From Sphingomonadaceae bacterium (lineage in GTDB: Bacteria; Pseudomonadota; Alphaproteobacteria; Sphingomonadales; Sphingomonadaceae): a stretch of 64,000 nt of DNA. This document shows, piece by piece, positions 7,493 to 55,800 of this stretch. A program made the translations under genes and the position numbers. Each line of letters opens with the position of its first letter. Positions within the stretch are counted from its first letter, which is position 1. A model generated the notes under the pieces. It made no database searches and was not told the DNA's origin. It saw nothing but the letters and a program-made list of their open reading frames with translations. Where the stretch lies: the NCBI GenBank assembly GCA_947473355.1, contig CANJCQ010000011.1, forward strand, positions 404 through 64,403, written 5' to 3'.

Positions 7493-7603
7493 CCGTCATC
7501 CCCGCGAAGGCGGGGACCCATCACCTGCCATTGCGCCACGCACTAACGCTCTCGTTGTGCGACCATCTTCGGAGTTGGGTCCCCGCTTTCGCGGGGATGA
7601 CGG
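7493..7603. repeat. Palindromic doublet, family A copy 1
   Basis: CCGTCATCCCCGCGAAGGCGGGGACCCA (7493-7520) inverted with TGGGTCCCCGCTTTCGCGGGGATGACGG (7576-7603), one mismatch. Lies between convergent genes. Confidence 0.92.
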
Positions 7604-7621
7604 GGGGCAGATGCGAACGGC

Positions 7622-8602
7622 TCAAGGCTCAACGTAGCGGTTGACCTCGCCGATCTTCTTGCCGTCCTCGAAATAACCCAGCCCATAGTCGCCGCGAATG
7701 GTTGAGCGGATGGTGCGACGCTCGTATCTGGCGTCGCTGCCTTCCACTGCATGGAGCATGCGACTGTTGTCCCAGATCACCATGTCAGTCGGCTTCCATT
7801 GGTGCCAATAGGCGCTGGTACCCTTGCCGAGCTTGTTCAGCGTGTGGCAGATCTCGTCATAGAGCTTGTCGCCCTCGGGGGTCTCGTCGTGCTCGATGCC
7901 GACGGCCATCCATGGTGCGAGGTGTAGCACTTTCTCGCCGGTCTTGCGGGTCCAGACCGCCGGATGCATCGCGCGGGGGAAGATCGCGACTTCCTTGAGC
8001 AGCTGCGGTGTTGACCTATTCTCGCTGACTGCCTTGAAATTCACCCCATACTTCTGCTTCGAAAGCCGCGTGTCGAGCGTGTATACGATGTTCTTGCCTT
8101 CGATCCTGTCGCGCAGTTCCCTGGGGAATTGGCGATAGGTTTCAATCCCGTCCATGAAGCCGGTGCGGCCATGGGTCGGGGCATTGATCGGGCAGCGCAG
8201 AATGCCGGCGTAGTTGAGCTCGTCATTATAGCAGTGGTCGAAATGCCAGGGGGAAAAGCGCGCCAGCAACTGGCCATCGACTTCGACAATACCGTCACCC
8301 GTGTCGGCCTCGCCGTCCTTGGGCTGATAATGCATGTCGATCACTCCGGCCGCATCTTCCTCGGCAGTGCGCGGCGTGGTTGAGGTCGGGTGATCCTTAA
8401 GCGGGCCGAACACCTTGCTGAGCTCGACATGCATCTTGTTCGATTGCTCGATGTTCTCGAACACGATCATGCCGCGATCCTCGAACAGCGAGCGCAGCTT
8501 GGCGCGCACCGCTTTGTCCTGGACATTTTCCAGCGTGACGCCTTCGACGCGGGCGCCGAACGAAAGATCGTCCTGCAGGGCGCTGATTTTGAGTTCGGTC
8601 AT
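7622..8602 (-). CDS. TauD/TfdA-family Fe(II)/2-oxoglutarate dioxygenase
   Basis: WHFD (HxD) and WDNSRMLHA motifs. Confidence 0.92.
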   Translation of the reverse strand: MTELKISALQDDLSFGARVEGVTLENVQDKAVRAKLRSLFEDRGMIVFENIEQSNKMHVELSKVFGPLKDHPTSTTPRTAEEDAAGVIDMHYQPKDGEADTGDGIVEVDGQLLARFSPWHFDHCYNDELNYAGILRCPINAPTHGRTGFMDGIETYRQFPRELRDRIEGKNIVYTLDTRLSKQKYGVNFKAVSENRSTPQLLKEVAIFPRAMHPAVWTRKTGEKVLHLAPWMAVGIEHDETPEGDKLYDEICHTLNKLGKGTSAYWHQWKPTDMVIWDNSRMLHAVEGSDARYERRTIRSTIRGDYGLGYFEDGKKIGEVNRYVEP

Positions 8603-8780
8603 GCCACATTCTCCCATTTGGCTGCCTCTACACCCCGGAATTCCGGCGGCACGGGCGCTGCTATGGCGCTATCTAAGTGCAGCAAAGCTGCCCAAGTCAA
8701 TGGCCGAATTGGGGCGAACCGTGCATTTCGTCACAGATCGCTTGTATTCGCCGCCTGCCTCGGCTGGTATCTGCCTCGCC

Positions 8781-9341
8781 ATGACCCAAGCTCAATATCT
8801 CTCAGGCCGCATGTTGCTGGCCATGCCCGGCATGGGCGACCCGCGCTTCGCCCGCGCGGCGATTGCGCTTTATGTACACGACGAGAACGGGGCCTTCGGG
8901 GTTGGCGTCGGGCATCTGCGCAGCGGGGTGAGCTTGCATGAGTTGATGCGCGAACTCGACATTGATCCGGGTGTTGCCCCCGATTGTCCGATCCACGACG
9001 GCGGACCGGTCGAGCCCGGGCGCGGCTTTGTCCTGCATTCGCCCGATTGGGATAGCGAAGACACGCTGATGGCCCCGCCGCTCGGCGGCCTTTCCGCTTC
9101 GCTCGACATATTGCGTGCGATTGCCGAGGGGCATGGACCCGCCAAGTGGATGGTCGCGCTCGGCTATGCCGGCTGGGTGCCGGGCCAGCTCGACATGGAA
9201 ATGCGCCACCACGGCTGGTATGCGGCTGAAGGTCGAAGCGGCGTGCTGTTCGATCATCCGGCGGAGCGCCGCTGGGAAGCGGCATGGCGCGCCGAAGGGA
9301 TCGATCCGGCGCTGCTGGCGAGTGAAACCGGGAGGGCATGA
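8781..9341 (+). CDS. YqgE/AlgH (DUF179) family protein
   Basis: LLAMPGMGDPRF, GGPVEPGRGFVLH, LGYAGW..GQL..E motifs. Confidence 0.92.
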   Translation: MTQAQYLSGRMLLAMPGMGDPRFARAAIALYVHDENGAFGVGVGHLRSGVSLHELMRELDIDPGVAPDCPIHDGGPVEPGRGFVLHSPDWDSEDTLMAPPLGGLSASLDILRAIAEGHGPAKWMVALGYAGWVPGQLDMEMRHHGWYAAEGRSGVLFDHPAERRWEAAWRAEGIDPALLASETGRA

Positions 9342-9901
9342 TGGAAGATCACGAAGTGCGGGTGCCGCCGCTGGAAGTGGCGGAATTCAGCGAGGAACAG
9401 GCCGCACTGGTGGGGAGATGGTCTCACCTCAATTTCTCGCGTGTGCTGGTGCGCCATCCCGCGCTTTATCGCGCCTTCATGCCCTATATCGCGCAGGTCA
9501 TTCCCGGCTCGACGCTTCCGCCGCGCGATCGCGAAGTGCTGGTGGTCCGCACTCTGGCGCTGGGCGGCGATGTTTATGAGGCGCACCACCATGTCCAGAT
9601 CGCACTCAAGGCCGGGATGAGCGAGGCTGATATTGCGGCAGTTCGCGCGGCCGATGCCGGTCTGTCGGAATGGGATCAGGTGCTGGTGCGCGCGGCGGAC
9701 GAGCTGGTGCAGCGGCAGAAGCTGAGCGACGCCAGCTGGGACTTGCTCGGCCAGCGCTATTCGCGAGAGCAGTGCATGGAAGTGGTCTTCCTTGTCGGCT
9801 GCTATAATGTCATGGCGATGCTGACCAACAGCTTCGGGATAGCGCTTGAAAGCGACCCCGAAGCCGATGCGAAGCTCAAGGCCATGCGGCAATATACCTG
9901 A
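9338..9901 (+). CDS. Carboxymuconolactone decarboxylase (CMD/AhpD-like) family protein
   Basis: LPPRDRE...R......YE..HH...A..AG pattern. Confidence 0.82.
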   Translation: MMEDHEVRVPPLEVAEFSEEQAALVGRWSHLNFSRVLVRHPALYRAFMPYIAQVIPGSTLPPRDREVLVVRTLALGGDVYEAHHHVQIALKAGMSEADIAAVRAADAGLSEWDQVLVRAADELVQRQKLSDASWDLLGQRYSREQCMEVVFLVGCYNVMAMLTNSFGIALESDPEADAKLKAMRQYT

Positions 9902-9915
9902 TTCGGAGAGTGTGA

Positions 9916-10737
9916 ATGAGCCTGACCACCCGTGACCTGTCCCCCGCCATCGGCAGCGAGGTCATCGCCGATGCGGCCAGCCTGCTCAGCGGCAGTCTGG
10001 CCGCCGAAATCAAGGCCAAGCTGACCGAGCGCGGGGTTTTGCTGTTCCGCGACGTCCATTTTGATGATGAAGAGCTCAATGCTTTTGCCGCCAGCGTCTC
10101 GCCGATCGACAACCAGGACGAGAAGGGCAATTTCAAGGTGACCATGGACGCCGAAATCAATCCGATGGCGCTGATCCTCTATGGCACCCGCGCCTGGCAC
10201 ATGGACCGGCTCGACACAGCGTTGCCGCCGCTCGGTACCTTGCTGTCGCCAAGGGTGCTGTCGCTGGAGGGTGGCGAAACTGAATTCGCCAATACCTATG
10301 CGGCTTACGAGGCGCTGTCCGACGAGGACAAGGCATTGATTGAGGACCTGGAAGTCGAGCACACCACGGCCAACCAGCTGCGCAACGTAGAACTTCCCGC
10401 CGGGCTCGAACAGATTGTCGACCAGCTGGGCATGGGCACCTCGCGCATCCATCCGCTGGTCTGGCGGCATCGTTCGGGTCGCAAGTCGCTGGTGCTCGGC
10501 TGGACCGCCACCCGCGTCGTTGGCATGGATCCGGCGGAAGGCGACGCCCTGATCGCGCGGCTGATCGCTCATGCCGAACAGCCACAGTTCACCTATCGCC
10601 ACCACTGGCGGATGGGCGACGTGGTGATGTGGGACAACACCGGGACGATGCACCGGGTCCAGCCCTTCGAGCAGGGCAGCAAGCGCTATCTCCACCGGGT
10701 GACGCTCGCGGGCGAGGAGCCGCTGGTCGCAGCGTAA
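9916..10737 (+). CDS. TauD/TfdA-family dioxygenase
   Basis: WHMD, GGETEFAN, WDNTGTMHR motifs. Confidence 0.93.
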   Translation: MSLTTRDLSPAIGSEVIADAASLLSGSLAAEIKAKLTERGVLLFRDVHFDDEELNAFAASVSPIDNQDEKGNFKVTMDAEINPMALILYGTRAWHMDRLDTALPPLGTLLSPRVLSLEGGETEFANTYAAYEALSDEDKALIEDLEVEHTTANQLRNVELPAGLEQIVDQLGMGTSRIHPLVWRHRSGRKSLVLGWTATRVVGMDPAEGDALIARLIAHAEQPQFTYRHHWRMGDVVMWDNTGTMHRVQPFEQGSKRYLHRVTLAGEEPLVAA

Positions 10738-10774
10738 GTTCTCCTCCCGCACAGGGTCCCTACCCAACCATCAT

Positions 10775-10914
10775 CGTCACCCTGAACTTGTTTCAAGGTC
10801 CATTTTTCCTCGCACGCGGAGCTTGGTAATCAAGAGTAAACCTCGCGGTTGGGGTTTGTCCTGCTGGCTCCGGGCGCGCGGCATGATGGACCATGAAACA
10901 AGTTCAGGGTGACG
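10775..10914. repeat. Palindromic doublet, family B copy 1 (140 bp)
   Basis: CGTCACCCTGAACTTGTTTCAAGGTCCAT (10775-10803) inverted with ATGGACCATGAAACAAGTTCAGGGTGACG (10886-10914); 82-bp spacer. Confidence 0.92.
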
Positions 10915-11025
10915 AAAATGGGGTTGGTGGATCGCAGCCCTGTCGCAGCATCGTTGGGATTGCACTGGCCTGCCATCGACCTATAGTTTCAAGTCAAACA
11001 ACCAAGCAATTTGGAGAGGAAACCC

Positions 11026-12609: not shown

Positions 12610-12613
12610 GGCA

Positions 12614-13222: not shown

Positions 13223-13251
13223 AGATTGAGGACTTGGCATCGGCACCAATA

Positions 13252-13311
13252 TTGCGCAATAAAATGCGTATCAGCTTGACTTGGTCAAGAGTTTGCGCAA
13301 TATGATGCGCA
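13252..13311 (+). promoter_or_regulatory. Putative hicAB promoter with operator repeats
   Basis: Direct repeats TTGCGCAATAAAATGCGTA (13252-13270) and TTGCGCAATATGATGCGCA (13293-13311) flank the palindrome CTTGACttgGTCAAG, which contains a TTGACT -35-like box. Confidence 0.55.
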
Positions 13312-13328
13312 CTATCTGAGGCTTTGAA

Positions 13329-13511: not shown

Positions 13512-13537
13512 CAAAGCCTTGTTGAAGGATCGAGCTT

Positions 13538-13942: not shown

Positions 13943-13972
13943 GCGCCAAACGCCCTTGCTTTCCTGCCAGCC

Positions 13973-15462: not shown

Positions 15463-15602
15463 CGTCACCCTGAACTTGTTTCAGGGTCCATTTCTCCGCA
15501 CCTCCAGAGCTCGGCTTGCATCACCAGGCCTCGAGGTTTGCTTCTGTCGTCATGGCACCTTGCTGGCTGCGTGATGGACCCTGAAACAAGTTCAGGGTGA
15601 CG
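15463..15602. repeat. Palindromic doublet, family B copy 2 (140 bp)
   Basis: Perfect 29-bp inverted repeat CGTCACCCTGAACTTGTTTCAGGGTCCAT (15463-15491) / (15574-15602); 82-bp spacer. Confidence 0.93.
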
Positions 15603-15625: not shown

Positions 15626-17455
15626 TCAGCTCAATTCCAGACCTTCCAGCTTGCCGTCTGCCCGCCAGTCGCCGAGCATCTTCTGGAACATATCCCAGCC
15701 CAGACCATAGGCGCGGAAGAGCTGCCAGGGGGCACCTTTCTGGCCTTCGTTGCTGAAGTAGCTGGGGGTGCATTCGGCCTGAAAGGCGGTGGTGTCCATC
15801 TCGACTTCGGCGAAGTGCTTTTCGTAAGTCGCCTGAGCCTCGGCGCTGGGTTCGGCGACTATCTTGCCCCGGCGTAGCGTTTCGCCAAGGATATAGGCCG
15901 AATGCTCGCACTGCTTGCCGAACTGCTCGGTGACCGAGCCGTTCAGCGCGCCCTGGATATAGCCGATGACGAACAGGTTGGGGAACCCACGCGCCATGTT
16001 GCCTTGGAAGGTATGGGGACCATCGCGCCAGAAGTCATAGAGCGACTTGCCACCGCGGCCATTGATCGCCTCGAAGCCCCAGCGCTTTTCAAGCTCGCTT
16101 GAAACCTCGAAGCCCGAGGCGAAGATGATGCAATCGACTTCGTAATCCACCCCGTCCTGCCGGAAGCCCGTCTCGGTGATCTGCTCGAGACCCTGTGTCC
16201 CGGAGGTGTCGATCAGGTGCACGTTTGGCTGGTTGAAGCAGGGGTAGAAAGTGTCGCTGGAAAGCGGCCGCTTGCACAGGAAGCGGTAATAGGCCTTGAG
16301 TCTTTCAGCCTTCACTGGGTCCTTGATCGTTGCATCGACCCGGCGGCGGAAGCGTTCCATCACCTGATAATCGACCACTTCGCGGCGCTCCATGAATTCT
16401 TCCATGGTGCCCGAGGTCATCGGTTCGGCGGCATTCCACGCGGCGAGGTTGCGGTTGATCTCGGTCCAGAAATCGCAGACCAGATCCTCCTCGGCGGGCA
16501 TCGGCACTTCCTGGGCATAGCGCTGGAAATTGGCGATGCGCTCTTTCTGCCAGCCGGGCTGGAGGCTCTTCAGCCAGGCCTCGTCGGTCAGCGGATTGGG
16601 CCGGGTATCGACGCAGCTCGGCGTGCGCTGGACGACATAGAGCTCCTTGCAATATTGCGCGAGGTGGGGGACCGCCTGGATCGCGGTCGCGCCGGTGCCA
16701 ACAATGGCAACGCGCTTGTCCTTGAGTTTGCTCAGCTCCGGGTTTTCGCAGCTACCGCCGGTGTAATCATATTCCCAGCGTGAAGTGTGGAACATCTTGC
16801 CCTTGAACTTCGCGATGCCATTGATCCCCGGCAGCTTGGGCATGTTGAGCACGCCCTGGCCCATGATCACGAAGCGCGCGCGGATATCGTCACCGCGATC
16901 AGTCTTGACGTGCCAGCGCTGGATCGCTTCGTCCCAAATCAGCGAGGTGATCAGGGTATGGAACAGCGCCTGATCGGCAAAGCCATGCTTTTCGGCCATC
17001 AGGCGGATGTAGCCCATGATCTCCGGCCCCGGTGCGAAGCGGCGCGAGGGCATGAAGCCGGTCTCTTCGAGCAGCGGCAGGTAGCAGTATGATTCGTTGT
17101 CGCACTGGATGCCGGGATAGCGGTTCCAGTACCATACCCCGCCGAAATCTCCGGCGTGGTCGATATTGCGGAACGAGGTCACGCCCTGCTGCTTGAGGTA
17201 ATATCCGGCCATAACCCCGGAGAAGCCGGCGCCGAGCACGGCGACATCAATCTCCTCGACGATGGGTTCGCGCGGGGCCACGGCCATGTAGGGATCGTGG
17301 TTATAGAGATCGTGCAGATCGCCCGGGCCGTCATTGATATATTGCGCGCCCGCCTTGGGGTTCAGGCGCTTGTCGCGCTCGGCATAATATTTCGCGCGCA
17401 GGGCCGGGATATCGATCTCATCGCGCGGCGGTACGTCGGTGACCTGGCAGTCCAT
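15626..17455 (-). CDS. Baeyer-Villiger (type I) flavin monooxygenase
   Basis: GAGFSG, GGVWYWNRYPG, BVMO fingerprint FKGKMFHTSRW, second Rossmann motif GTGATA. Confidence 0.95.
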   Translation of the reverse strand: MDCQVTDVPPRDEIDIPALRAKYYAERDKRLNPKAGAQYINDGPGDLHDLYNHDPYMAVAPREPIVEEIDVAVLGAGFSGVMAGYYLKQQGVTSFRNIDHAGDFGGVWYWNRYPGIQCDNESYCYLPLLEETGFMPSRRFAPGPEIMGYIRLMAEKHGFADQALFHTLITSLIWDEAIQRWHVKTDRGDDIRARFVIMGQGVLNMPKLPGINGIAKFKGKMFHTSRWEYDYTGGSCENPELSKLKDKRVAIVGTGATAIQAVPHLAQYCKELYVVQRTPSCVDTRPNPLTDEAWLKSLQPGWQKERIANFQRYAQEVPMPAEEDLVCDFWTEINRNLAAWNAAEPMTSGTMEEFMERREVVDYQVMERFRRRVDATIKDPVKAERLKAYYRFLCKRPLSSDTFYPCFNQPNVHLIDTSGTQGLEQITETGFRQDGVDYEVDCIIFASGFEVSSELEKRWGFEAINGRGGKSLYDFWRDGPHTFQGNMARGFPNLFVIGYIQGALNGSVTEQFGKQCEHSAYILGETLRRGKIVAEPSAEAQATYEKHFAEVEMDTTAFQAECTPSYFSNEGQKGAPWQLFRAYGLGWDMFQKMLGDWRADGKLEGLELS

Positions 17456-18520: not shown

Positions 18521-18628
18521 CGTCATCCCCGCGCAAGCGGGGACCTATCACCGGGGTTGGCGGCCTGATCGAAGCATTGTGCAAGACGCGCCGTAACGAG
18601 ATGGGTCCCCGCTTGCGCGGGGATGACG
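18521..18628. repeat. Palindromic doublet, family A copy 2
   Basis: CGTCATCCCCGCGCAAGCGGGGACCTATC (18521-18549) inverted with GATGGGTCCCCGCTTGCGCGGGGATGACG (18600-18628). Lies between convergent genes. Confidence 0.92.
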
Positions 18629-18661: not shown

Positions 18662-19921
18662 CTACACAGCTCCAAACGCCCCTGCCGCCTCGGCAATCGC
18701 CTCATACACGGCCCCAAGATCCTCTTCTGAAATGCAATAGGGCGGCATGACGTAGACCTTGTTCCCCAGCGGGCGTAGCAGCAGGCCGCGTTCGAGGAAG
18801 AATGCCTTCAGCTTTGGTCCGACATCCGCGAGATAACCCGCATCCCCGCTCGCCAGATCGATCGCGATCATCGTGCCGCACTGGCGCGGGTTCAACAGAC
18901 CGGGAACTTTCGCCAGTCCTGCCAGCCCTTCCGTCTGTCGCGCGGCCAGTGTGGCGATACGCTCCAGCACCGGTTCATCGCGCCACACGTCGAGGTTCGC
19001 CAGGGCCGCCGCGCAATTGATGGGATTGGCGGTGTAGCTGGAGGAGTGGAAGAACTGCTGTGAGCGGTCTTGCGAGAAGTGCGCATCGTAGATCGGCGGG
19101 CTGGCTAGCGTCACTGCCAGAGGGACGGCGCCGCCGGTCAGGCCTTTCGACAGGCACATGATATCCGGCACCACGTCTGCCTGTTCGCAGGCAAACAGCG
19201 TGCCGGTGCGGCCCCAGCCTGTCATCACTTCGTCGGCAATGAACAGCACGCCGTGCTTCGCGCAGATCGCGTGCATCGCCGCGAGGATGTGGGGCGGATA
19301 GATCAGCATGCCGCCGGAGCCGAGGATCAAGGGCTCGACGATGAAGGCGGCAGCATCGCCCTGTTTGCAGGCCGTTTCCAGCGCATCGAGCGTTTCCTGC
19401 TCCGCCCCCGCAGCGGGGTAGGGCACCGAGGTCACATCGAACAGCAGCGGCTGATAGGCCTTGGTGAACACCCCGCGCTCGCCGACCGACATGCCGCCGA
19501 AAGTGTCGCCGTGATAGGAGTGTTGCATCACGATCATGCGGTGGCGCGGCTCGCCCCGGTTAGCCCAAAAACCAAGCGCCATTTTCAGCGCGACTTCGAC
19601 TGCGGTCGAGCCGCTGTCCGAATAGAACACGTGATCGAGCGGGCGAGGGGCGATTTCCACCAGACGGCGTGCAAGCTCTTCGGCGGGTTCGTGGGTCCAG
19701 CCGGCGAAGATGATCTGGTCGAGCTTTTCAGCCTGTGCCCGGATCGCGGCGACGATCTTCGGGTGGCAGTGGCTGTGGGTGGTGACCCACCAGCTGGAAA
19801 TGGCGTCGATAATTCGCTTTCCGTCGGCGGTGTGCAGCGCCGCGCCTTGCGCGCTGGTGACCAACGGGATCGGCTCTTCGAGGCCGTGCTGGGTGAAGGG
19901 GTGCCAGACCGGGGAGGTCAT
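18662..19921 (-). CDS. bioA: Adenosylmethionine-8-amino-7-oxononanoate aminotransferase
   Basis: [51 protein letters not shown]. Start overlaps the bioD stop. Confidence 0.96.
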
Positions 19922-22729: not shown

Positions 22730-22888
22730 CTCCTCTCCCCTTGCGGGAGAGGAAAGTGCAGCTTGCGGACTTGTCCGCTAGCGTAGCTTGGAGAGGGGGC
22801 CGCGAGGAACGTAGCTCGCCCCCTCTCCAACTACGGCTAGGCAACAAGTTGCCAAGCCTTCGTATCCTCTCCCGCGAGGGGAGAGGAG
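22730..22888. repeat. Compound palindromic element, family C copy 1 (159 bp)
   Basis: Terminal arms CTCCTCTCCCCTTGCGGGAGAGGA / TCCTCTCCCGCGAGGGGAGAGGAG with internal hairpins (GCGGACTTGTCCGC, GCAACAAGTTGC, GAGAGGGGGC..GCCCCCTCTC). Collinear with 52623-52806 in reverse orientation. Confidence 0.9.
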
Positions 22889-23924: not shown

Positions 23925-26069
23925 ATGGCAGACCGCGATATCCTGATCGGCGTCGATGTCGGCGGCACATTCACCGATGCCGTGGTGATGGTCGGCGGCG
24001 CGAGCTTCCGCGCCAAATCGCCCAGCACCTATCCCGAGATCGGGCGCGGGGTGCTGGCGGCTTGCGAGCTGGCGGCGCGCGCATCGGGGCAGGAACTGGC
24101 CGAGCTGCTGCCGCGCGTTAAGAAATTCGGGCTGGGGACGACGGCCGTGACCAATGTCATCGCCACCCGCACGGGGCTGAAGACCGGGCTCGTGACCACC
24201 AAAGGCTTCGAGGAAACCCTGCGGCTCGCGCGCGGGCGCACCAGTGAGCAGGATGGCTGGCTGATGCCGGTCGATGCACTGGTCGAGGCGCGGGCGATTG
24301 TCGGGATCGACGAGCGGATCGACCGGGACGGCGGAGTGCTCAAAGCACTCGATCCGGCCGATGTGGTCAGGGCCGGACGCTATCTGGCCGATGAGGTCGG
24401 GGTGGAGAGCATCGCCGTCTCCTTCCTGTGGTCGTTCCTCAACGAGGACCATGAGCGAGAGGCGGCGCGGCTGTTGCGGGAGGCTTTGCCGGGAATGCCG
24501 ATCTCCTCCGGGGTCGAACTGCGCCCGGTGATCCGCGAATATGAACGCACCACGCTTGCCGTGCTCAATGCCTATGCCACCGGCGCCTATCGCGGGGTCG
24601 ACGGCTTAGCTGCGCAATTGCGCGAGGCCGGCCTCGCCGCGCCTGTGCTGCTCTGCCATTCGGGCGGCGGTGCGATTTCGGTCGAACAGGCGCGCGAGCA
24701 GCCGGTGTGGCTGGCGGCTTCCGGCCCGGCGGCAGGGGTTGCCGCAGCGGCGCGGATTGCGCGCGATGCGGGCGAGGACAAAGTTTTGACCTGCGATCTG
24801 GGCGGCACATCCTTCGATGTCGCGCATCTGGCGGATGGCGCCCCGGCGCGCACCCAGCGCGGCGACCTGATGGGGTTCTGGACAGCGCTACCGCGTGTCG
24901 ATGTCGAATCAGTGGGCGCGGGCGGCGGGTCGCTGGCCTGGATCGATGAACGCTCAATGCTGCGGGTCGGGCCAAGGTCGGCGGGCTCCTCGCCGGGGCC
25001 AGTTTGTTATGGGCGGGGCGGTACACAGGTGGCGCTGACCGATGCCTTGCTGGTGCTCGGCTATATCGATCCGGCGCGGTTTCTGGGTGGCACCATGGTG
25101 CTCGACCGCGAGGCGGCGTTGGCCGCTTGCGGCAAGCTGGGCGAGGCGCTGGGGCTGGATGCTGTCGATGCCGCCTGGGGCGTGCGCGAGATTGCTGTGG
25201 CCGAGATGGTCAAGGCGGTGCGAGCGCGGCTATCCAATCATGCGCTGGCTGCGGCGGAGCATTGTTTGGTGAGCTATGGCGGCTGTGGCGCGCTGTTTGC
25301 GGCGGAAGTGGCGAAGCTGGCGGGCATCCCCCGCGTGCTGGTTCCGGAGCTGGCCTCGGTGCTTTCCGCCTATGGCGCGGCGACGATGGATATCCGGCGC
25401 GAGCGGTTGACCACCTTGCTGATGAAGCTGCCGGGCGATGCGGATCAGATCGACCGCACTTTCGCCGCCCTGCGCGAAGCCGTGTGGCAGGATCTTGCGG
25501 CGGACGGCGTCGCGGAAGCAGACCGCGAAGTGCGCTTCGAGCTTGATATGCGCTGGTTCTTGCAGCGCTGGGAGCTGACCATTGCCGTGCCGGGCGAGCC
25601 GGTGCTGGGCGATGGCGGGGCCCAGGCCGAGGCCCTGTTCCGCGCCGAGTATCTGCGGCGGTTTGGCGCGGCATCGACGACGACTTCGGGGATTGTCGAG
25701 CTGGTCGGGATCAGGGCTGTGGGGGTTGGGCGGATGGAGGACGAAATCCTCCCCGAGCTTGCTCGGGGAGGGGGACCGCCCGCGCAGCGGGTGGTGGAGG
25801 GGAATCCGCAAAGTACCCCTCCGTCATCGCTGCGCGATGCCACCTCCCCGAGACAAGCTCGGGGAGGATCAAGCGAGCGTCCGGTCAGCCTCAGGCGTTC
25901 GCACCCGTCCGAACCTATCGAAGTTCACGACACTGCCACCCTCGCCCCCGGCGACCACTTCACCGGTCCGGCGCTGGTCGATTCATCGGACACGACAATC
26001 TGGGTGCCCAAGGGTATGACGGCCCGAGTCGATCCGAACCGCACTCTGGTTATCGAGGTCTGCACATGA
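23925..26069 (+). CDS. Hydantoinase/oxoprolinase A subunit (ATP-binding; AcxA/ApcC-like)
   Basis: GVDVGGTFTD, GTTAVTN, TTKGF.E, SGPAAG, DLGGTSFD, GAGGGS, GP.SAGS.PGPVCYG, SAYG. Contains an in-frame palindromic insert. Confidence 0.93.
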   Translation: MADRDILIGVDVGGTFTDAVVMVGGASFRAKSPSTYPEIGRGVLAACELAARASGQELAELLPRVKKFGLGTTAVTNVIATRTGLKTGLVTTKGFEETLRLARGRTSEQDGWLMPVDALVEARAIVGIDERIDRDGGVLKALDPADVVRAGRYLADEVGVESIAVSFLWSFLNEDHEREAARLLREALPGMPISSGVELRPVIREYERTTLAVLNAYATGAYRGVDGLAAQLREAGLAAPVLLCHSGGGAISVEQAREQPVWLAASGPAAGVAAAARIARDAGEDKVLTCDLGGTSFDVAHLADGAPARTQRGDLMGFWTALPRVDVESVGAGGGSLAWIDERSMLRVGPRSAGSSPGPVCYGRGGTQVALTDALLVLGYIDPARFLGGTMVLDREAALAACGKLGEALGLDAVDAAWGVREIAVAEMVKAVRARLSNHALAAAEHCLVSYGGCGALFAAEVAKLAGIPRVLVPELASVLSAYGAATMDIRRERLTTLLMKLPGDADQIDRTFAALREAVWQDLAADGVAEADREVRFELDMRWFLQRWELTIAVPGEPVLGDGGAQAEALFRAEYLRRFGAASTTTSGIVELVGIRAVGVGRMEDEILPELARGGGPPAQRVVEGNPQSTPPSSLRDATSPRQARGGSSERPVSLRRSHPSEPIEVHDTATLAPGDHFTGPALVDSSDTTIWVPKGMTARVDPNRTLVIEVCT
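25746..25869. repeat. Family C palindromic element inserted in frame within the hydantoinase A gene
   Basis: ATCCTCCCCGAGCTTGCTCGGGGAGG ... CCTCCCCGAGACAAGCTCGGGGAGGAT terminal inverted repeats; translated as ILPELARGGGPPAQRVVEGNPQSTPPSSLRDATSPRQARGG. Confidence 0.85.
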
Positions 26070-28216
26070 ATTATCACGCCAGCCGCACCGATGATCCCAT
26101 CGCGCCCGAGTTGCTGCGTTCGCGGCTGGAAGCCATCGGGCAGGAGGCAGGGGCCGCCGTCCAGCAGACGGCGATCTCGCCGATTGTCACCGAGAGCAAG
26201 GACTATTCGGTCACCATCCTCGATGCCGCAGGCTCTGTGATTTCTGCCTATGGCCTGATCGAGATTCATTATGGCGCGGTAATGCATGCGGTGCGCTCGA
26301 CGATAAAGGTGCACGGCGACTCCATTGCCGCTGGCGATGTGTTCCTCGCCAACGATCCGCATTCGGGCGGGGGCCTGCATCCGCAGGACGTGGTGATCCA
26401 GCGGCCGGTGTTTGAAGGTGGCAAGCTGGTCGCATGGGTTGCCCTGGCGGCGCACATGATGGACATGGGCGGCATGGTGCCCGGCTCCTCCGCCGTGGCG
26501 GCGACCGAGTGTTATCAAGAGGCGCTGCGCTTGCCGCCCGTCCGGCTGATCCGGCAGGGGGTGGAGTGCGACGACATCTGGAACATCTTCCGGATCAATG
26601 TGCGCAGCTCCGACCTCATCGAAATGGACATGCGCAGCCTTGTGATTGGCGGCGCGGTGGCCGAGGCCAAGCTTATCGAGCTGATCCGCGACATGGGCTT
26701 TGCGGCCTTCCAGTCGGCCAGCAGTGCGCTGCTCGCCGGGGTCGAGCGGGTGCTGCGCGAGCGTATCTCGCTGCTGGAGGACGGGCACTATTTCTCCACG
26801 GCCTGGATCGAGTGGGGCGGCGACGTGATGCGCATGCCCTGCACCATGGAAGTGCGTGGGCACAGGCTGATCTTCGATCTCACCGAAGCCCCGCCGCAGG
26901 TGCCGAGCTTCATCAATTCCAAGGAATACATCATCCGCGCCCAGATCGGCCCGCGCATGCGCCAATTGCTCGCGCCCGGCCTGCCGTTCAATCAGCCAGT
27001 GCTCGATATTGTCGAGATCATTTCCAAGCCCGGCACTTTGGTCAATTCGGTCAGTCCGGCGCCAATTGCCGCCGCGCATATGGATGCGGCGATGGCAGTG
27101 TTCACTGCGGCCGGCCAATGCATGCAGATGGCGCTGCATGCTTCGAAAAGCGCGATGGAGCGCGATCGGACGACTTCGCCGGCGCTCGCCGCCTATGGCA
27201 CTGGGCGCTGGACCTATCTCGATCATTTCGGCACGCGGCGGGTCTATACGCTGATCGATGGTGCTTTCTCTGGCAGTCCGGCGGGCGGCGAGATGGACGG
27301 GCTCGATATCAAGAGCAGCCAGACACCCGGCGGAAACCAGCTCGAATTCGCCGATGTCGAGATCCTCGAGTCAAGCTATCCGCTGCTGTTCCACGAACGG
27401 CGGGCGACGACCGGCGAGCATGGCTATGGCAAGTATCGCTCGGGCGCGGGCTGTCAGGAGAGCTTCAGCGCGCATAACACCGAGACGCTTGTCGGCAACA
27501 TGACCGGCACACGGGCGTGGTTCCCCACCGGGGGCAGCGCGGGCGGCATGCCGGGCGCCTGCATGCGCTATTTCGTCCACCGTGCGGGGGGAGAGACCGA
27601 AAAGGTCGATATCCATCAGGTCGGCCTCGCGCTCGCCCCAGGCGATGTGTTCGAGATGTTTTGCGCGAGCGGCGGCGGGTACGGTGATCCGCTTGATCGT
27701 GACGCCGAGGCCGTAGCGCGCGATCTCGCCGAGGACCGGGTCGCGCCGGAGATTGCCCGCGAGATTTACGGTGCGGTGCTGGATGCCAAGGGCGGTGTCG
27801 ATTCAGTTGCTACCGAAGCCCGGCGGGCCGAGCTGCGCCAGCAGCGGCTGCGCGATGCCGCGCCGCCGGTGCGACCTGCGCCCGATCTGGCCCCCAATTT
27901 GTCATGGGGCGACGAACCCGCATTTCCGCTCTATCCAGGCGTGATCCAGCGTGGCAATCTGGCGCTGTCGGAATATTCTGGCGCCGTGCTCGCCGTGGCG
28001 CCGGATAGCTGGCTGGATGGGTGCCCGGTGCTCGACATGGCGATTGACGATCGGGCCGGGGGCACTATCGCACGTGCCCATCTGGATCCGGCGAGCGGCC
28101 GGATGCTGTTCGTCGATGTAATCCGCAAGGGCGATGGCCCGAGCATTGAATGCCGCCCCGACAGATGGGCGAAAGCAGGACATAACCTGCCAAGAAACGA
28201 AGGAGAGAAAGCATGA
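26066..28216 (+). CDS. Hydantoinase/oxoprolinase B subunit (metal-binding) with C-terminal extension
   Basis: TAISPIVTESKDYS, GDVFLANDPH.GG.LHPQD, AHMMDMGG..PGS, YQEALRLPP, GGGYGDPL.R; ATGA overlap with subunit A. Confidence 0.93.
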   Translation: MNYHASRTDDPIAPELLRSRLEAIGQEAGAAVQQTAISPIVTESKDYSVTILDAAGSVISAYGLIEIHYGAVMHAVRSTIKVHGDSIAAGDVFLANDPHSGGGLHPQDVVIQRPVFEGGKLVAWVALAAHMMDMGGMVPGSSAVAATECYQEALRLPPVRLIRQGVECDDIWNIFRINVRSSDLIEMDMRSLVIGGAVAEAKLIELIRDMGFAAFQSASSALLAGVERVLRERISLLEDGHYFSTAWIEWGGDVMRMPCTMEVRGHRLIFDLTEAPPQVPSFINSKEYIIRAQIGPRMRQLLAPGLPFNQPVLDIVEIISKPGTLVNSVSPAPIAAAHMDAAMAVFTAAGQCMQMALHASKSAMERDRTTSPALAAYGTGRWTYLDHFGTRRVYTLIDGAFSGSPAGGEMDGLDIKSSQTPGGNQLEFADVEILESSYPLLFHERRATTGEHGYGKYRSGAGCQESFSAHNTETLVGNMTGTRAWFPTGGSAGGMPGACMRYFVHRAGGETEKVDIHQVGLALAPGDVFEMFCASGGGYGDPLDRDAEAVARDLAEDRVAPEIAREIYGAVLDAKGGVDSVATEARRAELRQQRLRDAAPPVRPAPDLAPNLSWGDEPAFPLYPGVIQRGNLALSEYSGAVLAVAPDSWLDGCPVLDMAIDDRAGGTIARAHLDPASGRMLFVDVIRKGDGPSIECRPDRWAKAGHNLPRNEGEKA

Positions 28217-29898
28217 GCGATCTGGATCTGGTCATTCGCGGCGGTACTGTGGTCGATGGCACCGGCACTGAGGGTTACACAGCCGATGTCGGCATTGCCG
28301 GAGGCAAGATCGCCGAAATCGGCAAGATCGCGCCCGGCTCTGCACGCGTCATCGAGGCCGAGGGGCATATCGTCTCGCCCGGCTTCATCGATGGCCACAC
28401 GCACATGGACGCCCAGATGCACTGGGACCACCTCGGCACCAATTCGGTGTGGCATGGTGTCTCGACCGTGGTGATGGGCAATTGCGGCTTTTCCATCGCG
28501 CCGATGCGCAAGGGCAAGCAGGCGCTGGTCGCACGCAGTCTCGAGCGGGCCGAGGACATTTCCGGCGCGGCGATGGCAGCGGGGATCGATTTCTCCTGGG
28601 AGAATTACGACCAGTACCTTGATGTCGTCGATAAGCTGCCCAAGGGGATCAACCACGCGGCATATGTCGGCCACTCGGCGCTGCGCACTTTTGTGATGGG
28701 CGAGCGCGCTTTCGAAGAGGAAGCCAATGCCGACGATCTGGCGGCGATGACCGCTGAGCTGGCGCGCGGGCTCGATGCCGGTGCGATGGGCTTTTCAACC
28801 TCGCGCAGCCTTGCGCACCTGACTTCGGACGACAAGCCGGTCGCCTCGCGGCTGGCGACCCGCGAGGAAGTGGCCTCGCTGGTCGGCTCAATGAAGGGCC
28901 GCAAGGGCGCAGTGTTCGAGCTGGCGCATGAAATCCTGCTGCCGGGCGATCTCGATGGCGATGCCTACTGGAACTGGCTCAGGGACCTCACCATCTCGTC
29001 GGGCGTGGCCACCACCTACGGCGTGCTCGGACGTTTCGCGCCCACCCAAATCGACTATATCGACGGCGTCAGGGCAGCTGGCGGACGGATGTTTGGGCAA
29101 ACCCATAGCCGGGGGGTCAGCTCGCTGTTCTCGTTCCGCACCGCCTTTTTCTTTGATTCGCAGCCCGTGTGGAAAGAGTTGCGCAAGCAGCCGCTCGAAA
29201 TGCAAAAGGCCCAGCTGGCCGATCCTGCGACCCGCGCGGCGCTGATCGCGGCGGTTGACAATGCCCAGTATGGCCAGGCCTCGGGCGCGGAAGGCAAGCC
29301 GCCGGAATGGGATGCCTTCTACTATTTCGACAAGCCAATGCCGCCTTATCGCACCTTGGCGGAATTGGCGGCGGAGCGCGGCGCCAGCCATCCGCTCGAA
29401 GTGCTGTTCGACCTCGCCATCGAGACCGACATGCACGCGCTGTTCATGCAATACCTCACCCAGGCCTCGGACGAGGAAGCGGTGCGGGTGATGCGCCATC
29501 CCAGCTCGATCATGACTTTTTCGGACTCGGGCGCGCATGTCAGCCAGATCGCCGACGGCTCGATCCAGACGCACCTGCTTGCCTATTTCTGCCGCGACAA
29601 GCAGCTGCTTTCGATCCCCGAAGCCGTGCAGATGATGACCAGCCGCGCCGCAAATGCCTGGGGCTTTTCCGATCGCGGCGTGCTGGCGGCAGGCATGGCG
29701 GCGGACGTCAACATTTTCGATCCGGCAACCGTCGGCCCGGAAATGCCGGAGGTGGTGCATGACCTTCCGACCGGCGCGCGGCGCTTCTCGCAGCGGGCCA
29801 AGGGCTTCCGGGCGACTGTGGTCAATGGTCAGGTGCTGACTGAAAACGGGGTGCATACCGGGGCCTTGCCAGGGCAATTGTTGCGGCGGCGGGATTGA
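28213..29898 (+). CDS. N-acyl-D-amino-acid deacylase family amidohydrolase
   Basis: VIRGGTVVDGTG, PGFIDGHTHMD, GNCG, SDSGAH, G.AADVN.FD. Confidence 0.92.
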   Translation: MSDLDLVIRGGTVVDGTGTEGYTADVGIAGGKIAEIGKIAPGSARVIEAEGHIVSPGFIDGHTHMDAQMHWDHLGTNSVWHGVSTVVMGNCGFSIAPMRKGKQALVARSLERAEDISGAAMAAGIDFSWENYDQYLDVVDKLPKGINHAAYVGHSALRTFVMGERAFEEEANADDLAAMTAELARGLDAGAMGFSTSRSLAHLTSDDKPVASRLATREEVASLVGSMKGRKGAVFELAHEILLPGDLDGDAYWNWLRDLTISSGVATTYGVLGRFAPTQIDYIDGVRAAGGRMFGQTHSRGVSSLFSFRTAFFFDSQPVWKELRKQPLEMQKAQLADPATRAALIAAVDNAQYGQASGAEGKPPEWDAFYYFDKPMPPYRTLAELAAERGASHPLEVLFDLAIETDMHALFMQYLTQASDEEAVRVMRHPSSIMTFSDSGAHVSQIADGSIQTHLLAYFCRDKQLLSIPEAVQMMTSRAANAWGFSDRGVLAAGMAADVNIFDPATVGPEMPEVVHDLPTGARRFSQRAKGFRATVVNGQVLTENGVHTGALPGQLLRRRD

Positions 29899-29943: not shown

Positions 29944-30039
29944 CGTCATTCCCGCGTAAGTGGGAACCTATCTTCAGCGCTATCGGTTTGCGCGAGCATC
30001 AAGATCAGGAGCTGGGTCCCCGCTTTCGCGGGGATGACG
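29944..30039. repeat. Palindromic doublet, family A copy 3
   Basis: CGTCATTCCCGCGTAAGTGGGAACCTATC (29944-29972, degenerate) inverted with TGGGTCCCCGCTTTCGCGGGGATGACG (30013-30039). Confidence 0.85.
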
Positions 30040-48702: not shown

Positions 48703-48755
48703 ATCTCTGGCGTAGCACTGCGGCTCAGATCCTCGGATAAGAGCAGCCTCGGCAC

Positions 48756-50447: not shown

Positions 50448-50450
50448 CGC

Positions 50451-51878: not shown

Positions 51879-52618
51879 GTGCCCCTCGTGTCGCCATAGA
51901 GGTGGATATGCAAGCGGTCGGAGAGGTTAAATTCATGTTCCGAACAAATTTGTGCCAGCCAGCGGGAGCGCGATTGCAGGGTTTCGCTGTCGCGGCCTTC
52001 GGGCATCAGCCAGATGCGCTGCGATGGAATGGCATGGGCCTGCTGGAGGGATAACACTTCGGTGAGGTCATCAGGGGTGGCGATCACGAATTTGAACATG
52101 GCGCGCGGGTCGGCTGACCAGGCGGCGAGGCGCTCGGGGATCAGGGCCAGCTCTGCGGGGTTGCCGCTGTGCGCCAGCTTGGGGCTGACGTTGTACTGGT
52201 GGATCAGCATATCGAGCGCGCGCGGCGGGGCGACGGTGCCGTTGGTTTCGACCTCGATGTGCCATGACGACTCTGGGGGGGGCAGCAGAGCGATCATGCG
52301 GGCGAGAGCAGGGGCCTGAAGCAGCGGCTCGCCGCCGGTCACGACGAGGCGGCGGGGCCTGAGCGCGGCTATGCGGGCAGCGGCGTCCTCTTCGCTGAGC
52401 GTGACCTGGTTGGCCTTGCGTTCGAAGGTCAAGGCATCGCGGTGGGGGTGGTTGTTGCCTTCGAAACGCCAGGTGTAGGCGGTGTCGCACCAGACACAGG
52501 CGAGGTTGCAGCGCGACAGGCGGATGAAGGTGCTGGGCCGCCCGGCGGAGGGGCCTTCGCCCTGCAGCGAGGCGAACACTTCGGGTTCGCCGGGGGTCTG
52601 GGTGGCGAGGGTCAGCAT
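51875..52618 (-). CDS. queE: 7-carboxy-7-deazaguanine synthase (radical SAM)
   Basis: SLQGEG...G....F.RL..CNLACVWCDT, VTGGEPLLQ, ETNGT, VSPK, RLH..L.G...G. Confidence 0.93.
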   Translation of the reverse strand: MLTLATQTPGEPEVFASLQGEGPSAGRPSTFIRLSRCNLACVWCDTAYTWRFEGNNHPHRDALTFERKANQVTLSEEDAAARIAALRPRRLVVTGGEPLLQAPALARMIALLPPPESSWHIEVETNGTVAPPRALDMLIHQYNVSPKLAHSGNPAELALIPERLAAWSADPRAMFKFVIATPDDLTEVLSLQQAHAIPSQRIWLMPEGRDSETLQSRSRWLAQICSEHEFNLSDRLHIHLYGDTRGT

Positions 52619-52622
52619 CCTG

Positions 52623-52806
52623 CCTCCCTTCCCCCTTGATGGGGGAAGGATACGAAGCCTTGGTGCCGCAGGCGCCTAGGCGCAGTTGGATCGGGGTGAG
52701 CGTGCCGGAAGCGCAGCGTTTTGACGAGAGCACACCCCCACCCAACCTGCGCTAGGCGACAAGTCGCCAAGCTCCGGTATCCCTCTCCCATCGAGGGGGA
52801 GGAAGG
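52623..52806. repeat. Compound palindromic element, family C copy 2 (~184 bp), filling the valS-queE spacer
   Basis: CCTTCCCCCTTGATGGGGGAAGGATACGAAG..CTAGGCGCAGTTGGA..CCAACCTGCGCTAGGCGACAAGTCGCCAAGCT..TATCCCTCTCCCATCGAGGGGGAGG; collinear with the reverse complement of 22730-22888. Confidence 0.9.
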
Positions 52807-52817
52807 AAACGGCCCCA

Positions 52818-55800
52818 TCACCCCAACCGCGCCAAGGCGGCACCCAGCCGCTCGGCCTCCGCTGCATGCATGGCATGATCGGCGCGGGCCTTTTCGACTG
52901 CCTCGGGTTTGGCCTTTTCGACAAACGAAGGATTGTTCAGGCGGCCTTCGAGTGACTTGGCCTCCTTGGTGGAAACCTCCAGCGCCTTGGCGAGGCGGGC
53001 CTTTTCGGCGGCGATATCGACCACGCCTTCCAGCGGCACGATCAGGTTGGCGTCCCCTGCGCCGATTTGCATCGCCGCACCTTGCGGGGCCGAATCGAAA
53101 CGGATCGCCGAGAGCCGGGCCAGCCGGTCGATGGCGCCGGGATTGGCCTCGATGGTGGCGCGCGTCGCAGGGCTGGGATCGGACAGGTAGGCTTCGAGCT
53201 TGGCGCCCGGCGCGATGCCGAGCTCGTTCTTGGCAGTGCGCAGGTTGCCGACCAGCGCGATCAGCCATTCGACCTCGCGCTTGGCTGCGGGATCGACTGC
53301 AGCGCCCGGCTCGGGCCACTTGGCCGTAATCAGCGGATAGTCTGCCCGCTCGCCCAAGGCCCCCCACAGCTCCTCGGTGACGAAGGGCATGAACGGGTGC
53401 AGCATGACCAGGATCTGGTCGAGCACCCAGCCGGCGACTGCCTTGGTCTCTTCATCGAACGAACCCTTGATCAGTTCGATATACCAGTCGCAGAACTGGT
53501 CCCACACGAAGTGATAGATCGTATTGGCCGCTGCATCGAAACGCAGGTCGGCCATGGCCTTGTCGAGCGCCTCGAGCGTTTCGACGACTTCGCCGATGAT
53601 CCACTTGTTGACCGCCAGCGTGGCCGGGGGCGCGGCCAGCGATGAGCTCGCCCCGATCCCGTTCGACTGGCAGAACCTTGCGGCGTTCCACAGCTTGGTG
53701 GCAAAGTTGCGATAGCCTTCGACGCGGGCCTTATCCATCTTCACGTCGCGGCCCTGGCTTTCCATCGAGGCCATGAAGAAGCGCAGCGCGTCGGCGCCGT
53801 ATTCGTCGATTAGCACCAGCGGATCGTCGACATTGCCCTTGCTCTTGGACATCTTCTGACCATCGGCAGCGCGGACCAGGCCGTGCAGGTAGAGCCGTTT
53901 CCAGGGCACCTGGCCCTGATTGAAGTGCATCCCCTGCATCGCCATGCGGGCGCACCAGAAGAACAGGATGTCGAAGCCTGAGATCAGCAGGTCGTTGGGG
54001 TAGTGGCGGCCGAGCAAACCACTTTCAGTGCCCCCCAAACCCGCTCGTGCTGAGCTTGTCGAAGCACCGCTTTGTTCTTTGGGGCTGGGCGTGTGGGGCG
54101 AAGAAAAGGACGGACCTTCGACAAGCTCAGGGCGAGCGGGGTTTTGTTCCTTGGTTTCGTCCGGCCAGCCGAGCGTGGCGAAGGGCCACAGCGCGGAGGA
54201 GAACCAGGTGTCGAGGACGTCCTCGTCTCGCCAAAGGGGGATTTGCTTGTTCTTGAGTAACTTAAGAAATTCGCTCGATGCACTCGGATCATCTTCGAAC
54301 TTAGCGCCGTTCGCATTTCGTCCCTCAATCTCGACAATCCGTTCTGCGGCTGTCTTGTAGTGAACTCGAGCAAGTTCGGTTGCCTGTTCGAATGTTTCGG
54401 CAACAAAGACTGGGTTCTTACCCAAATCGGTCTTCCAACCAGCCAGCCCAAAAACTTCTGGCTGCCGTTCATCCCAAGTGGGCCCATACCAAGCCGGTAT
54501 CCTATGCCCCCACCACAATTGCCTACTCACACACCACGGCTGGATATTCTCCATCCAGTTGAAATATGTCTTCTCCCAGCTCTTGGGGACAATCTCGATC
54601 CGCCCGTCGCGCACGGCTTCGATCGGCGGCTTGGCCAAGGTCGCCGCATCGACATACCACTGGTCGGTCAGCCACGGCTCAATCACCACGCCGCCGCGGT
54701 CGCCATAAGGCGTCTGGATGACGCGGTCCTCAGCGTCCTTTTCGGTGACTTCGCCGTCCTTGGCCGTCACGCTGAAAGTCACCAGCTGGCCCAGCGCCTT
54801 CATCCGCTCGACCACCAGCTCGCGCGCGCCGTCTGTGCCGTCGCGGCGGAAGCGGTGCAGGCCCACGAATTCCGCCGGGATCATGCTGTCCGAGGTCTGG
54901 ACCACATTGGCCTCGGCATCGAACATATTGAGCATTTCGGCGGGTTTGAACCCGGCGCGCTTGCCAACCTCGAAGTCATTGAAATCATGCCCCGGCGTGA
55001 TCTTGACCGCGCCCGAGCCCAGTTCGGGATCGGCGTGTTCGTCGGCGACAATCGGAATACGTCGCCCGGTGATCGGCTGCTCGATAAATTTGCCGATGAC
55101 CGACTGGTAACGCGGGTCTTCCGCGTTCACCGCCACGGCCATATCGGCCAGCATCGTCTCGGGCCGGGTCGTCGCAACCACGATGTGATCCGCGCCGTTC
55201 GCCAGCTTCACGCCGTCCGCCAGCGCATAGCGGAAGTGCCAGAAGTGGCCTTTCACTTCCTGCGTTTCCACCTCAAGATCGCTGATCGCGGTCTTGAGCT
55301 TGGGGTCCCAGTTGACCAGCCGCTTGTCGCGATAGATCAGCCCTTGGTTGTAGAGATCGACGAAAACCTTGACCACTGCCTTGGTGAAATGCGGGTCCAT
55401 GGTGAACTGCTCTCTCGACCAGTCCATCGAGCAACCCAGCCGCCGCAGTTGCTGCGTGATCGTGCCGCCGCTTTCTTTCTTCCATTCCCACACCTTCTCG
55501 ATGAAGGCCTCGCGGGAATAGTTGGTGCGCTTGTCCTGCGCCGCTTCAAGCTGGCGTTCGACCACCATTTGCGTGGCGATGCCGGCGTGATCCGTGCCGA
55601 CCACCCACAGCGCATCCTTGCCGCGCAGGCGCTCATATCGCACGACCACGTCCTGCAAGGTGTTGTCCAGCGCATGGCCGATATGCAGGCTGCCTGTTAC
55701 ATTGGGCGGCGGGTTGACGATAGTGAAGGGCACAGCGTCAGGGCGATCCGGGCGGAACAGCCCGTTCGTTTCCCAGTGCGCATACCACTTCGCCTCGATC

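Follow-up and report, generated by a model that had tools for sequence, protein, structure and literature searches.

Paired palindromes in a Sphingomonadaceae genome as probable gene-less copies of nuclease-partnered hairpin repeats

INTRODUCTION

Which enzyme, if any, stands behind the paired palindromes scattered over a 64,000-nt stretch of a Sphingomonadaceae draft genome? The stretch, called the window below, is C11:404-64403 (contig C11) in an assembly of 4.05 Mb (141 contigs, 62% G+C); its valyl-tRNA synthetase (ValRS) has at most 79% identity to ValRS from the Novosphingobium genomes and metagenome-assembled genomes compared, by which we place the organism in the Sphingomonadales as Novosphingobium-like. 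An earlier note, made from the sequence of the window, had listed nine paired palindromes, sorted into families A, B and C with a B-related copy in valS, and a tenth, separate element; all ten are present where it placed them. It had also proposed a non-autonomous mobile system served in trans by an enzyme encoded elsewhere.

In our view the window probably (about 0.75) contains solo copies, devoid of a gene, from two classes of hairpin repeat that have a nuclease as partner. To class 1 we assign families A and B together with the valS insert; it would consist of CGTC-tagged doublets of repetitive extragenic palindromes (REPs) with heads outward, each family having one or two units that bracket a gene for a GIY-YIG protein of 95-111 residues; class 2 (three C families) would consist of hairpins of the triplex-motif type that bracket small DUF559 genes (Vsr-like, PD-(D/E)XK). 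The direct evidence comprises the arms in common, an arm-gene-arm layout kept across species, the co-occurrence of arm counts with the genes, and arms that are better conserved than interiors. Families A and B belong, as members or as close variants, to a system described in 2013 and 2025; it is the pairing of the C families with DUF559 genes that looks undescribed, the rest being mostly in the literature already.

Di Nocera et al. (2013) describe a super-family of CGTC-tagged REPs, found mostly in Alphaproteobacteria, mostly paired, with CCA tails and a bias for convergent and unidirectional intergenic regions; some copies are intragenic, for instance within Erythrobacter and Sphingopyxis genes for tRNA synthetases, and neither a dedicated enzyme nor an adjoining tyrosine transposase in any species is reported (PMC3733652). 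Chenal et al. (2025) found that SsnA, a 94-residue GIY-YIG nuclease, binds the Neisseria member of this super-family, NTS, in single-stranded DNA (ssDNA) and cleaves it there; the ssnA gene is flanked by its own repeats, and such pairing is described as widespread, with Sphingomonadaceae named (PMC11893778). The intrastrand triplex motifs TMECO, BoxC and PIT were surveyed by Holder et al. (2015), who found no linked mobility gene (PMC4666352).

RESULTS AND DISCUSSION

GIY-YIG genes between family A, B and valS-type arms

A profile search of contig C11 gave no match to PF01541, PF04480 or PF01797. The mobiliser had been placed outside the window, and this agrees with what we saw: no candidate nuclease gene on C11, and arm-bracketed ones on other contigs. 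Three enzyme types had been named as candidates for genes flanked by the same arms; two of them were found so placed, GIY-YIG genes with A, B and valS-type arms and DUF559 genes with C-type arms, while the two genes resembling those of REP-associated tyrosine transposases (RAYTs) carry an unrelated motif. At least five GIY-YIG units with four arm types are present in this one genome:

C41, A arms at 18666 and 19050: A-type unit, a 95-residue GIY-YIG open reading frame (ORF) between the arms
C33, B arms at 24222 and 24624: B-type unit, a 111-residue GIY-YIG ORF, with an ordinary B doublet adjoining
C62/C90 contig ends: second B-type gene, split by an insertion sequence (IS)
C29: A-like unit, a GIY-YIG gene with an in-frame TAG between A-like arms
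C51:302-514: valS-type unit, a UPF0213/YhbQ-like GIY-YIG gene between valS-family arms

Inverted repeats stand on both sides of the gene on C41 (A), C33 (B), C51 (valS type) and C29 (A-like). PF01541 spans nearly the entire length of the C41 and C33 proteins as a single domain. The Tyr, Tyr and Glu positions of the GIY-YIG domain are conserved in the alignment of intact copies and are presumably equivalent to Neisseria Y6, Y17 and E64. In the PDB the closest matches are to UPF0213 proteins, with E = 1e-5 for the A-type and E = 4e-11 for the valS-type partner. Judged by sequence, the C41 and C33 genes are Ssn-like and the C51 gene is UPF0213/YhbQ-like.

The published SRM search sequence, HGTCWYN(0-2)YYVSBRHN(0-5)WNVSBRGN(0-2)RNCYNB (PMC11893778), is fitted by both arm variants of family A, with 59 matches in A loci; 18 A arms are identical to the NTS core CGTCATTCCCGCGMAVGCGGGAA. 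A lone doublet of another CGTCA-headed hairpin type (CGTCACCCCGGACTTGATCCGGGGTCCAG), at C5:51461-51541, also fits this search sequence. Another YhbQ-like GIY-YIG domain (C25:6196-6405) has no visible arms; it forms one 363-residue frame with a SpoU-like methyltransferase and lies just after nrdR.

DUF559 genes between C-tract/G-tract arms

All seven DUF559 genes of the genome are bracketed by inverted arms made of C-tracts and G-tracts; the following have arms of types named in this text (C25746 and C52623 are families of the window):

C3:19225-19533 and C5:36305-36616: DUF559 genes with C25746-type arms
C25:34506-34793: DUF559 gene with C52623-type arms
C92:3509-3823: DUF559 gene with strict TMECO arms

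Each DUF559 arm type owns a dispersed family, of 2 to ~42 loci. The order within an arm is C-tract, loop, G-tract, loop, G-tract, that is, the intrastrand-triplex plan. The strict TMECO consensus (CCCTCNCCC N3-6 GGGNGAGGG N3 GGGNGAGGG) has five sites in the genome, two of which flank the C92 DUF559 gene. Palindromes that had been put together as a single family C fall into three distinct families, with ~20, ~21 and ~29 loci; none matches the strict consensus, all being expanded variants with a second hairpin and the same order of tracts.

We found no publication that connects DUF559 with dispersed repeats. The single functional study on such a protein from the Alphaproteobacteria concerns VsrA of Caulobacter (PF04480; Matthey et al., 2026), which has the same domain, acts to damage DNA in vivo and is taken for a mismatch-repair enzyme with a link to cytosine methylation (PMC12907096); no repeat partnership is described for it.

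Repeat families across the genome

The census of the whole genome was made with 15 query sequences standing for 12 families and gave 245 loci, amounting to 22.3 kb of the 4.05-Mb genome; reversed-pattern controls for the arm searches gave 0 matches. A search for further copies of the arms had been suggested, and many exist: family A has 66 arms, in 26 doublets and 14 single copies (so that 26/40 A loci are doublets), and family B has 76, in 34 doublets and 8 single copies (34/42 loci), with heads outward in every doublet. The architecture attributed to families A and B, a CGTCA head plus a 7-8-bp hairpin in an inverted doublet, was borne out. The A arm consists of CGTCA, a 7-bp stem with a 4-nt loop, then CCCA; the B arm has CGTCA, an 8-bp stem with a 5-nt loop, then CCAT. 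The non-GTAG head of both equals the published CGTC tag (PMC3733652).

Two other details were not sustained. The spacer had been called variable; the modal length of A doublets is 96 nt, and B doublets measure 139-140 nt in 29 of 34 cases, with interiors ~60-65% alike. Identity between copies reaches 90-93% in the arms. Furthermore, the elements had been taken to end at the CGTCA head; a tract of ~12 nt beyond each head is strongly G-poor, with position bias, and the units are thus longer, reaching ~12 nt further.

Folded as ssDNA, arms and whole elements are far more stable than shuffled sequences (z of -3.2 to -10.2); whole elements fold as long hairpins (z of -8 to -10), while the valS-type arm by itself is an exception (z of only -1.6). 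A search of the elements against Rfam gave nothing at gathering thresholds. The interiors of B doublets show homology to the ends of B units weakly above shuffles (0.63 versus 0.56); with such values, an origin of gene-less doublets as deletion derivatives is not claimed.

One part of the genome is dense in B doublets: five of them, spaced ~2.1-2.3 kb, lie within 9 kb at C4:50118-59198, and a sixth is at C4:29117.

Conservation of the layout and co-occurrence with the genes

Homologues of the B-type nuclease (Ssn-B) were compared at 80 loci from ~80 Sphingomonadales species. An upstream B arm was present at 78 loci, mostly ~49 nt before the start, and a B arm at or just beyond the gene end at 77. 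Only in the four closest relatives were flanking genes common with the C33 locus, which suggests mostly vertical descent within the genus and other contexts further out. Homologues of the DUF559 genes gave 71 usable loci, from Alphaproteobacteria, Dehalococcoidia, Gastranaerophilales and others; 62 of them had flanking inverted repeats on the same plan, so that here and elsewhere a motif of the triplex kind, reported without a linked mobility gene (PMC4666352), brackets a DUF559 gene.

In the panel of the 30 nearest genomes (the statistics ignore phylogeny) the number of arms per genome varied from 0 to 154 for family A and from 0 to 45 for family B. Five genomes of the same genus have an Ssn-B orthologue (≥65% identity); six or more B arms were counted in eight genomes, and these include all five (p = 4e-4). 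An orthologue of DUF_C35, one of the DUF559 genes, occurred in four genomes; ten or more C35-type arms were counted in five, which include all four (p = 2e-4), and arms of this type abut those orthologues. The proposed correlation of arm number with a candidate enzyme is therefore seen for both genes, with exceptions such as G029, G001 and G017.

Position relative to genes

Every intergenic copy in the window lies 3′ of a stop codon and the divergent regions hold none, as had been pointed out; this bias had been called strict. Genome-wide it is strong, not strict, and it is an already-known REP pattern: 10 of the 201 intergenic copies are in divergent regions, a 3- to 5-fold depletion, with 133 in tandem and 58 in convergent regions. 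These counts rest on our own rough gene calls (3,667 ORFs, 88% coding). The number expected in divergent regions is ~33 by region count (p = 6e-7) or ~50 by length (p = 3e-14), and several of the ten divergent cases are nuclease units themselves or involve doubtful ORFs. Convergent regions are enriched in copies; copies in tandem regions lie at a median of 25 nt past the upstream stop and 61 nt before the next start. Di Nocera et al. give the same positional pattern for the CGTC repeats of S. wittichii (Sphingomonas) (PMC3733652).

The bias towards the 3′ side of genes would most likely result from the selective loss of copies that fall within promoters or reading frames, as with other REPs. 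One could also suppose, as the earlier note did, that the repeats may be tolerated solely in transcribed DNA.

In-frame copies in protein genes

In-frame insertion into genes is a property of the Rickettsia palindromic elements (RPE). Both in-frame copies reported in the window, one in valS and the other in a hydantoinase/oxoprolinase ORF, were upheld. The valS insert spans 36-38 residues immediately N-terminal of the conserved RHYPND motif. At the same position of ValRS, 59 of 80 orthologues have a segment of 12-13 residues, and 20 of the 80 Sphingomonadales valS genes have palindrome-derived inserts with 24-68 extra residues. At least three classes of repeat and many families are represented among them (mostly DUF559-type, four of them valS-type); such variety at one position calls for several insertions independent of each other, for a preferred site, or for both.

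Other internal copies were seen in ORFs assigned by eye to ileS (two copies), glyS, lysK, addB-like, selB and CoA-transferase:

C53:15817-19062, C58:15219-17774, C99:9887-11557, C24:10325-13432, C5:23370-25187 and C64:16105-18456: ORFs with internal copies

A C25746-family element lies directly 5′ of uvrC at C67:12747-12873 and is fused in frame in the longest ORF.

Palindromes in frame in essential genes (valS, ileS, glyS, lysK and others) make the present repeats similar to RPE; the host order and the families are different, and several unrelated repeat classes occupy one valS codon position here, in different lineages. Di Nocera et al. count RPE-4 and RPE-6 among the CGTC repeats (PMC3733652). 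In-frame copies would persist in permissive protein loops alone. That tRNA synthetase genes, valS among them, are hit recurrently is of interest for the shaping of proteins by repeats.

Relation to known systems

Families A and B resemble the CGTC-tagged REPs in the tag, the 4-5-nt loop, the CCA-type tail, the arrangement in opposed pairs, the alphaproteobacterial host and the location near stop codons; the stems are slightly shorter (7-8 bp against the published 8-9 bp). Intragenic copies in tRNA synthetase genes, known for these REPs in Sphingomonadales, occur here too. Unlike in the published description, the arms of each family here also enclose a nuclease gene. The question raised by Di Nocera et al. 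(2013), what enzyme serves the CGTC repeats, is thereby answered for this genome, along the lines of the 2025 Ssn work.

With NTS/SRM repeats and Ssn the present system shares the layout of a hairpin, a small gene for a single-domain GIY-YIG protein and an inverted hairpin, as well as many solo copies. Unlike the repeats of that paper, the B, valS-type and C29-type arms have the layout without the SRM pattern, and the valS-type partner is nearer to UPF0213/YhbQ. The repeat-nuclease design thus extends to hairpins outside the published pattern (B, valS type).

REPINs and their RAYTs (PMC3116915) offer a third comparison, the one drawn in the earlier note. Its architectural side holds: inverted doublets form long hairpins, the flanked enzyme gene has a low copy number, dispersed copies are non-autonomous, and inheritance, as far as tested, is largely vertical. 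The enzymatic side does not, the partner here being a hydrolytic GIY-YIG or PD-(D/E)XK nuclease and not an HUH tyrosine transposase; the head also differs (CGTCA against GTAG).

For DUF559 we suggest a broader proposition, to which we would give even odds: that these Vsr-like PD-(D/E)XK nucleases add a third class to the enzymes partnered with repeats, the other two being the HUH RAYTs and GIY-YIG Ssn, with a C/G-tract (triplex-type) hairpin of its own for each paralogue; that the seven DUF559 and at least five GIY-YIG units each have their own repeat population; and that these populations jointly re-colonise one permissive ValRS loop. If true, this would account for the long-unexplained BoxC/TMECO-type repeats across bacteria. 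The pairing provides a testable partner both for a widespread unexplained class of repeats and for a domain of unknown function, and with about a dozen nuclease-repeat pairs in one genome a direct comparison of their specificities is possible.

Possible mechanism and alternative explanations

By analogy with Neisseria SsnA, each nuclease would bind its own hairpin in ssDNA and cut a few nucleotides outside the head. A doublet with heads outward would then be cut at both of its outer boundaries, once on either strand, and the G-poor 12 nt outside the heads may mark the cleavage site. Nuclease activity would keep the arms conserved and would somehow seed or maintain the dispersed copies. GIY-YIG and PD-(D/E)XK enzymes are hydrolytic and do not carry out strand transfer by themselves; as they do not join DNA, the copying would have to be done by host repair or replication.

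Such hydrolytic chemistry is itself a point against nuclease-served dispersal, and there are others. Target duplications and empty sites had been proposed as signs of mobility, and neither was found. Target-site duplications were absent from 32 of the 34 B doublets and from 20 of the 26 A doublets. The 30 nearest genomes lack synteny at the one A locus examined, so that no empty sites were seen there; an exact-protein look-up for such sites matched the same strain alone, with the element present, a second look-up had no match, and a metagenome scan with ValRS for close strains found nothing above 75% identity. The only near-identical pair of copies shares its flanks as well and looks like a segmental duplicate, not a new insertion. 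The proposal of a non-autonomous system served in trans is therefore upheld as far as nuclease genes bracketed by the same arms are concerned, and not as to mobilisation, of which we found no sign in the form of duplications, recent copies or empty sites.

Some genomes and families also fit poorly. G029 has 63 A arms and no GIY-YIG match, 15 B arms occur in G001 where no Ssn-B orthologue is present, and the 23 C35-type arms of G017 are accompanied only by a 48%-identical DUF559. Arms of the B, valS and C29 types all fail the SRM search sequence; no DUF559 gene in the assembly has exactly C22730-type arms; and the DUF559 protein VsrA of Caulobacter has been read as a Vsr-like mismatch-repair nuclease (PMC12907096).

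Could the repeats be kept for a role in the host, as 3′-end hairpins of transcripts, protein-binding sites or tags for ssDNA restriction, and no longer move? The short median distance from the upstream stop, the enrichment in convergent regions, arms far more conserved than interiors and the lack of recent copies would all suit this. NTS with SsnA modulates transformation in Neisseria (PMC11893778) and REPs are thought to work as RNA elements (PMC3733652). Nonetheless we regard it as unlikely: several repeat classes at one codon position in 20 of 80 valS genes need repeated insertions, arm numbers range from 0 to 154 within one genus, copies in frame in tRNA synthetase genes have no obvious 3′-end function, and no Rfam family matches. 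Reversing the direction of events, one could instead see the palindromes as prior host repeats and the nuclease genes as homing-type elements that cut and entered their centres, the arms being targets and not products. Each gene does lie exactly between two arms that resemble an ordinary doublet, only one or two copies per family bear a gene, some genomes are rich in arms without having the gene, and both folds, GIY-YIG and PD-(D/E)XK, are frequent among homing endonucleases. We find this distinctly improbable, though; in most of the 80 species one arm keeps a fixed spacing to the gene start, and its counterpart overlaps the end of the gene, so that the unit is inherited whole; the flanks shared with the four closest relatives argue for mostly vertical descent, and arm counts are higher where the gene is present.

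Transposases give still less probable explanations than either of these. Movement of REPINs in trans by RAYT-type HUH tyrosine transposases of the genome would have the doublet layout in its favour, which is REPIN-like (PMC3116915), as well as two intact PF01797 genes and one fragment; we hold it to be very improbable and rejected RAYTs as mobilisers, the PF01797 genes on C43 and C63 being flanked by another motif, GCACTGTCACCGTAA, of few copies. Their score of 73.8 is below the NCBIfam REP-transposase cut-off of 80, the head of the repeats is CGTCA and not GTAG, and Di Nocera et al. report no tyrosine transposase beside CGTC repeats in any species (PMC3733652). As for ordinary miniature inverted-repeat transposable elements (MITEs) derived from an IS with a DDE transposase, long terminal inverted repeats, the constant length (B, 139-140 nt) and the multi-copy IS elements at contig ends are what one would look for; we give this the least credence and rejected it too, given that target duplications are lacking, that the longer units with these ends encode nucleases only and no transposase, and that the ends of the IS elements are unrelated in sequence, leaving no parent IS with the same ends. 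Solo copies of nuclease-partnered repeats thus remain our preferred reading.

The two RAYT-like genes, C43:35515-36183 and C63:2393-3094, are similar to those that Di Nocera et al. named 'TIRYT'. Located 5′ of the second one, at C63:1907-2115, is a dispersed repeat of ~200 nt with ~14 copies of 78-88% identity, unrelated to the palindromes.

Elements of the window

The palindromic elements of the window are, by window position:

1158-1215: separate palindrome of 58 nt, GCGTCGT...ACGACGC (GCGTCGTTATTCGCGAAAAACC...TTTTTCGCACGACGC), directly after the stop of ORF 521-1156
7493-7603: family A doublet, NTS/SRM-type CGTC-tagged arms CGTCATCCCCGCGAAGGCGGGGACCCA, heads outward
10775-10914: family B doublet of 140 nt, arms CGTCACCCTGAACTTGTTTCAGGGTCCAT, 3′ of a TauD-family gene in tandem context
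15463-15602: family B doublet, arms 30/30 complementary, between two minus-strand genes
18521-18628: family A doublet, flanked by a short-chain dehydrogenase gene and a class-III aminotransferase gene that converge on it
22730-22888: family C22730 element of 159 nt, ~20 loci in the genome
25746-25869, plus strand: family C25746 element of 124 nt, ~21 loci, in frame in the hydantoinase/oxoprolinase-A-like ORF 23925-26069
29944-30039: family A doublet of 96 nt, left arm degraded, between two plus-strand genes
~52623-52808: family C52623 element of ~185 nt, ~29 loci, between the valS stop and the next minus-strand gene
54037-54143, minus strand: valS-type (B-related) doublet, arms CCGCTCGCCCTGAGCTTGTCGAAGG, ~19 loci, in frame in valS (52818-55883)

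The A doublet at 7493-7603 has convergent neighbours, genes for a luciferase-like monooxygenase and a TauD-family dioxygenase, while the one at 29944-30039 starts 46 nt past the stop of ORF 28213-29898. In the B doublet at 10775-10914 an imperfect inverted repeat stretches further, to 10768-10921; the other B doublet, 15463-15602, stands 3′ of the stop codon of ORF 15626-17455. An arm of the C22730 element is built of a CCTCTCCCC/GGGAGAGG hairpin, a second hairpin and another G-tract, and C22730 is a sister family to C52623. The C25746 element codes for ...ILPELARGGGPPAQRVVEGN...PRQARGGS and interrupts the Hydant_A_C domain.

For the family of the separate palindrome at 1158-1215 neither a CGTCA head nor a partner gene nor an Rfam match was found; its eight copies in the genome lie mostly just 3′ of stop codons. 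Past the end of the window, at C11:64735-64883, and at ~10 other contig ends there is an identical multi-copy IS, one copy of which interrupts the second B-type gene (C62/C90); this IS is the source of the contig breaks.

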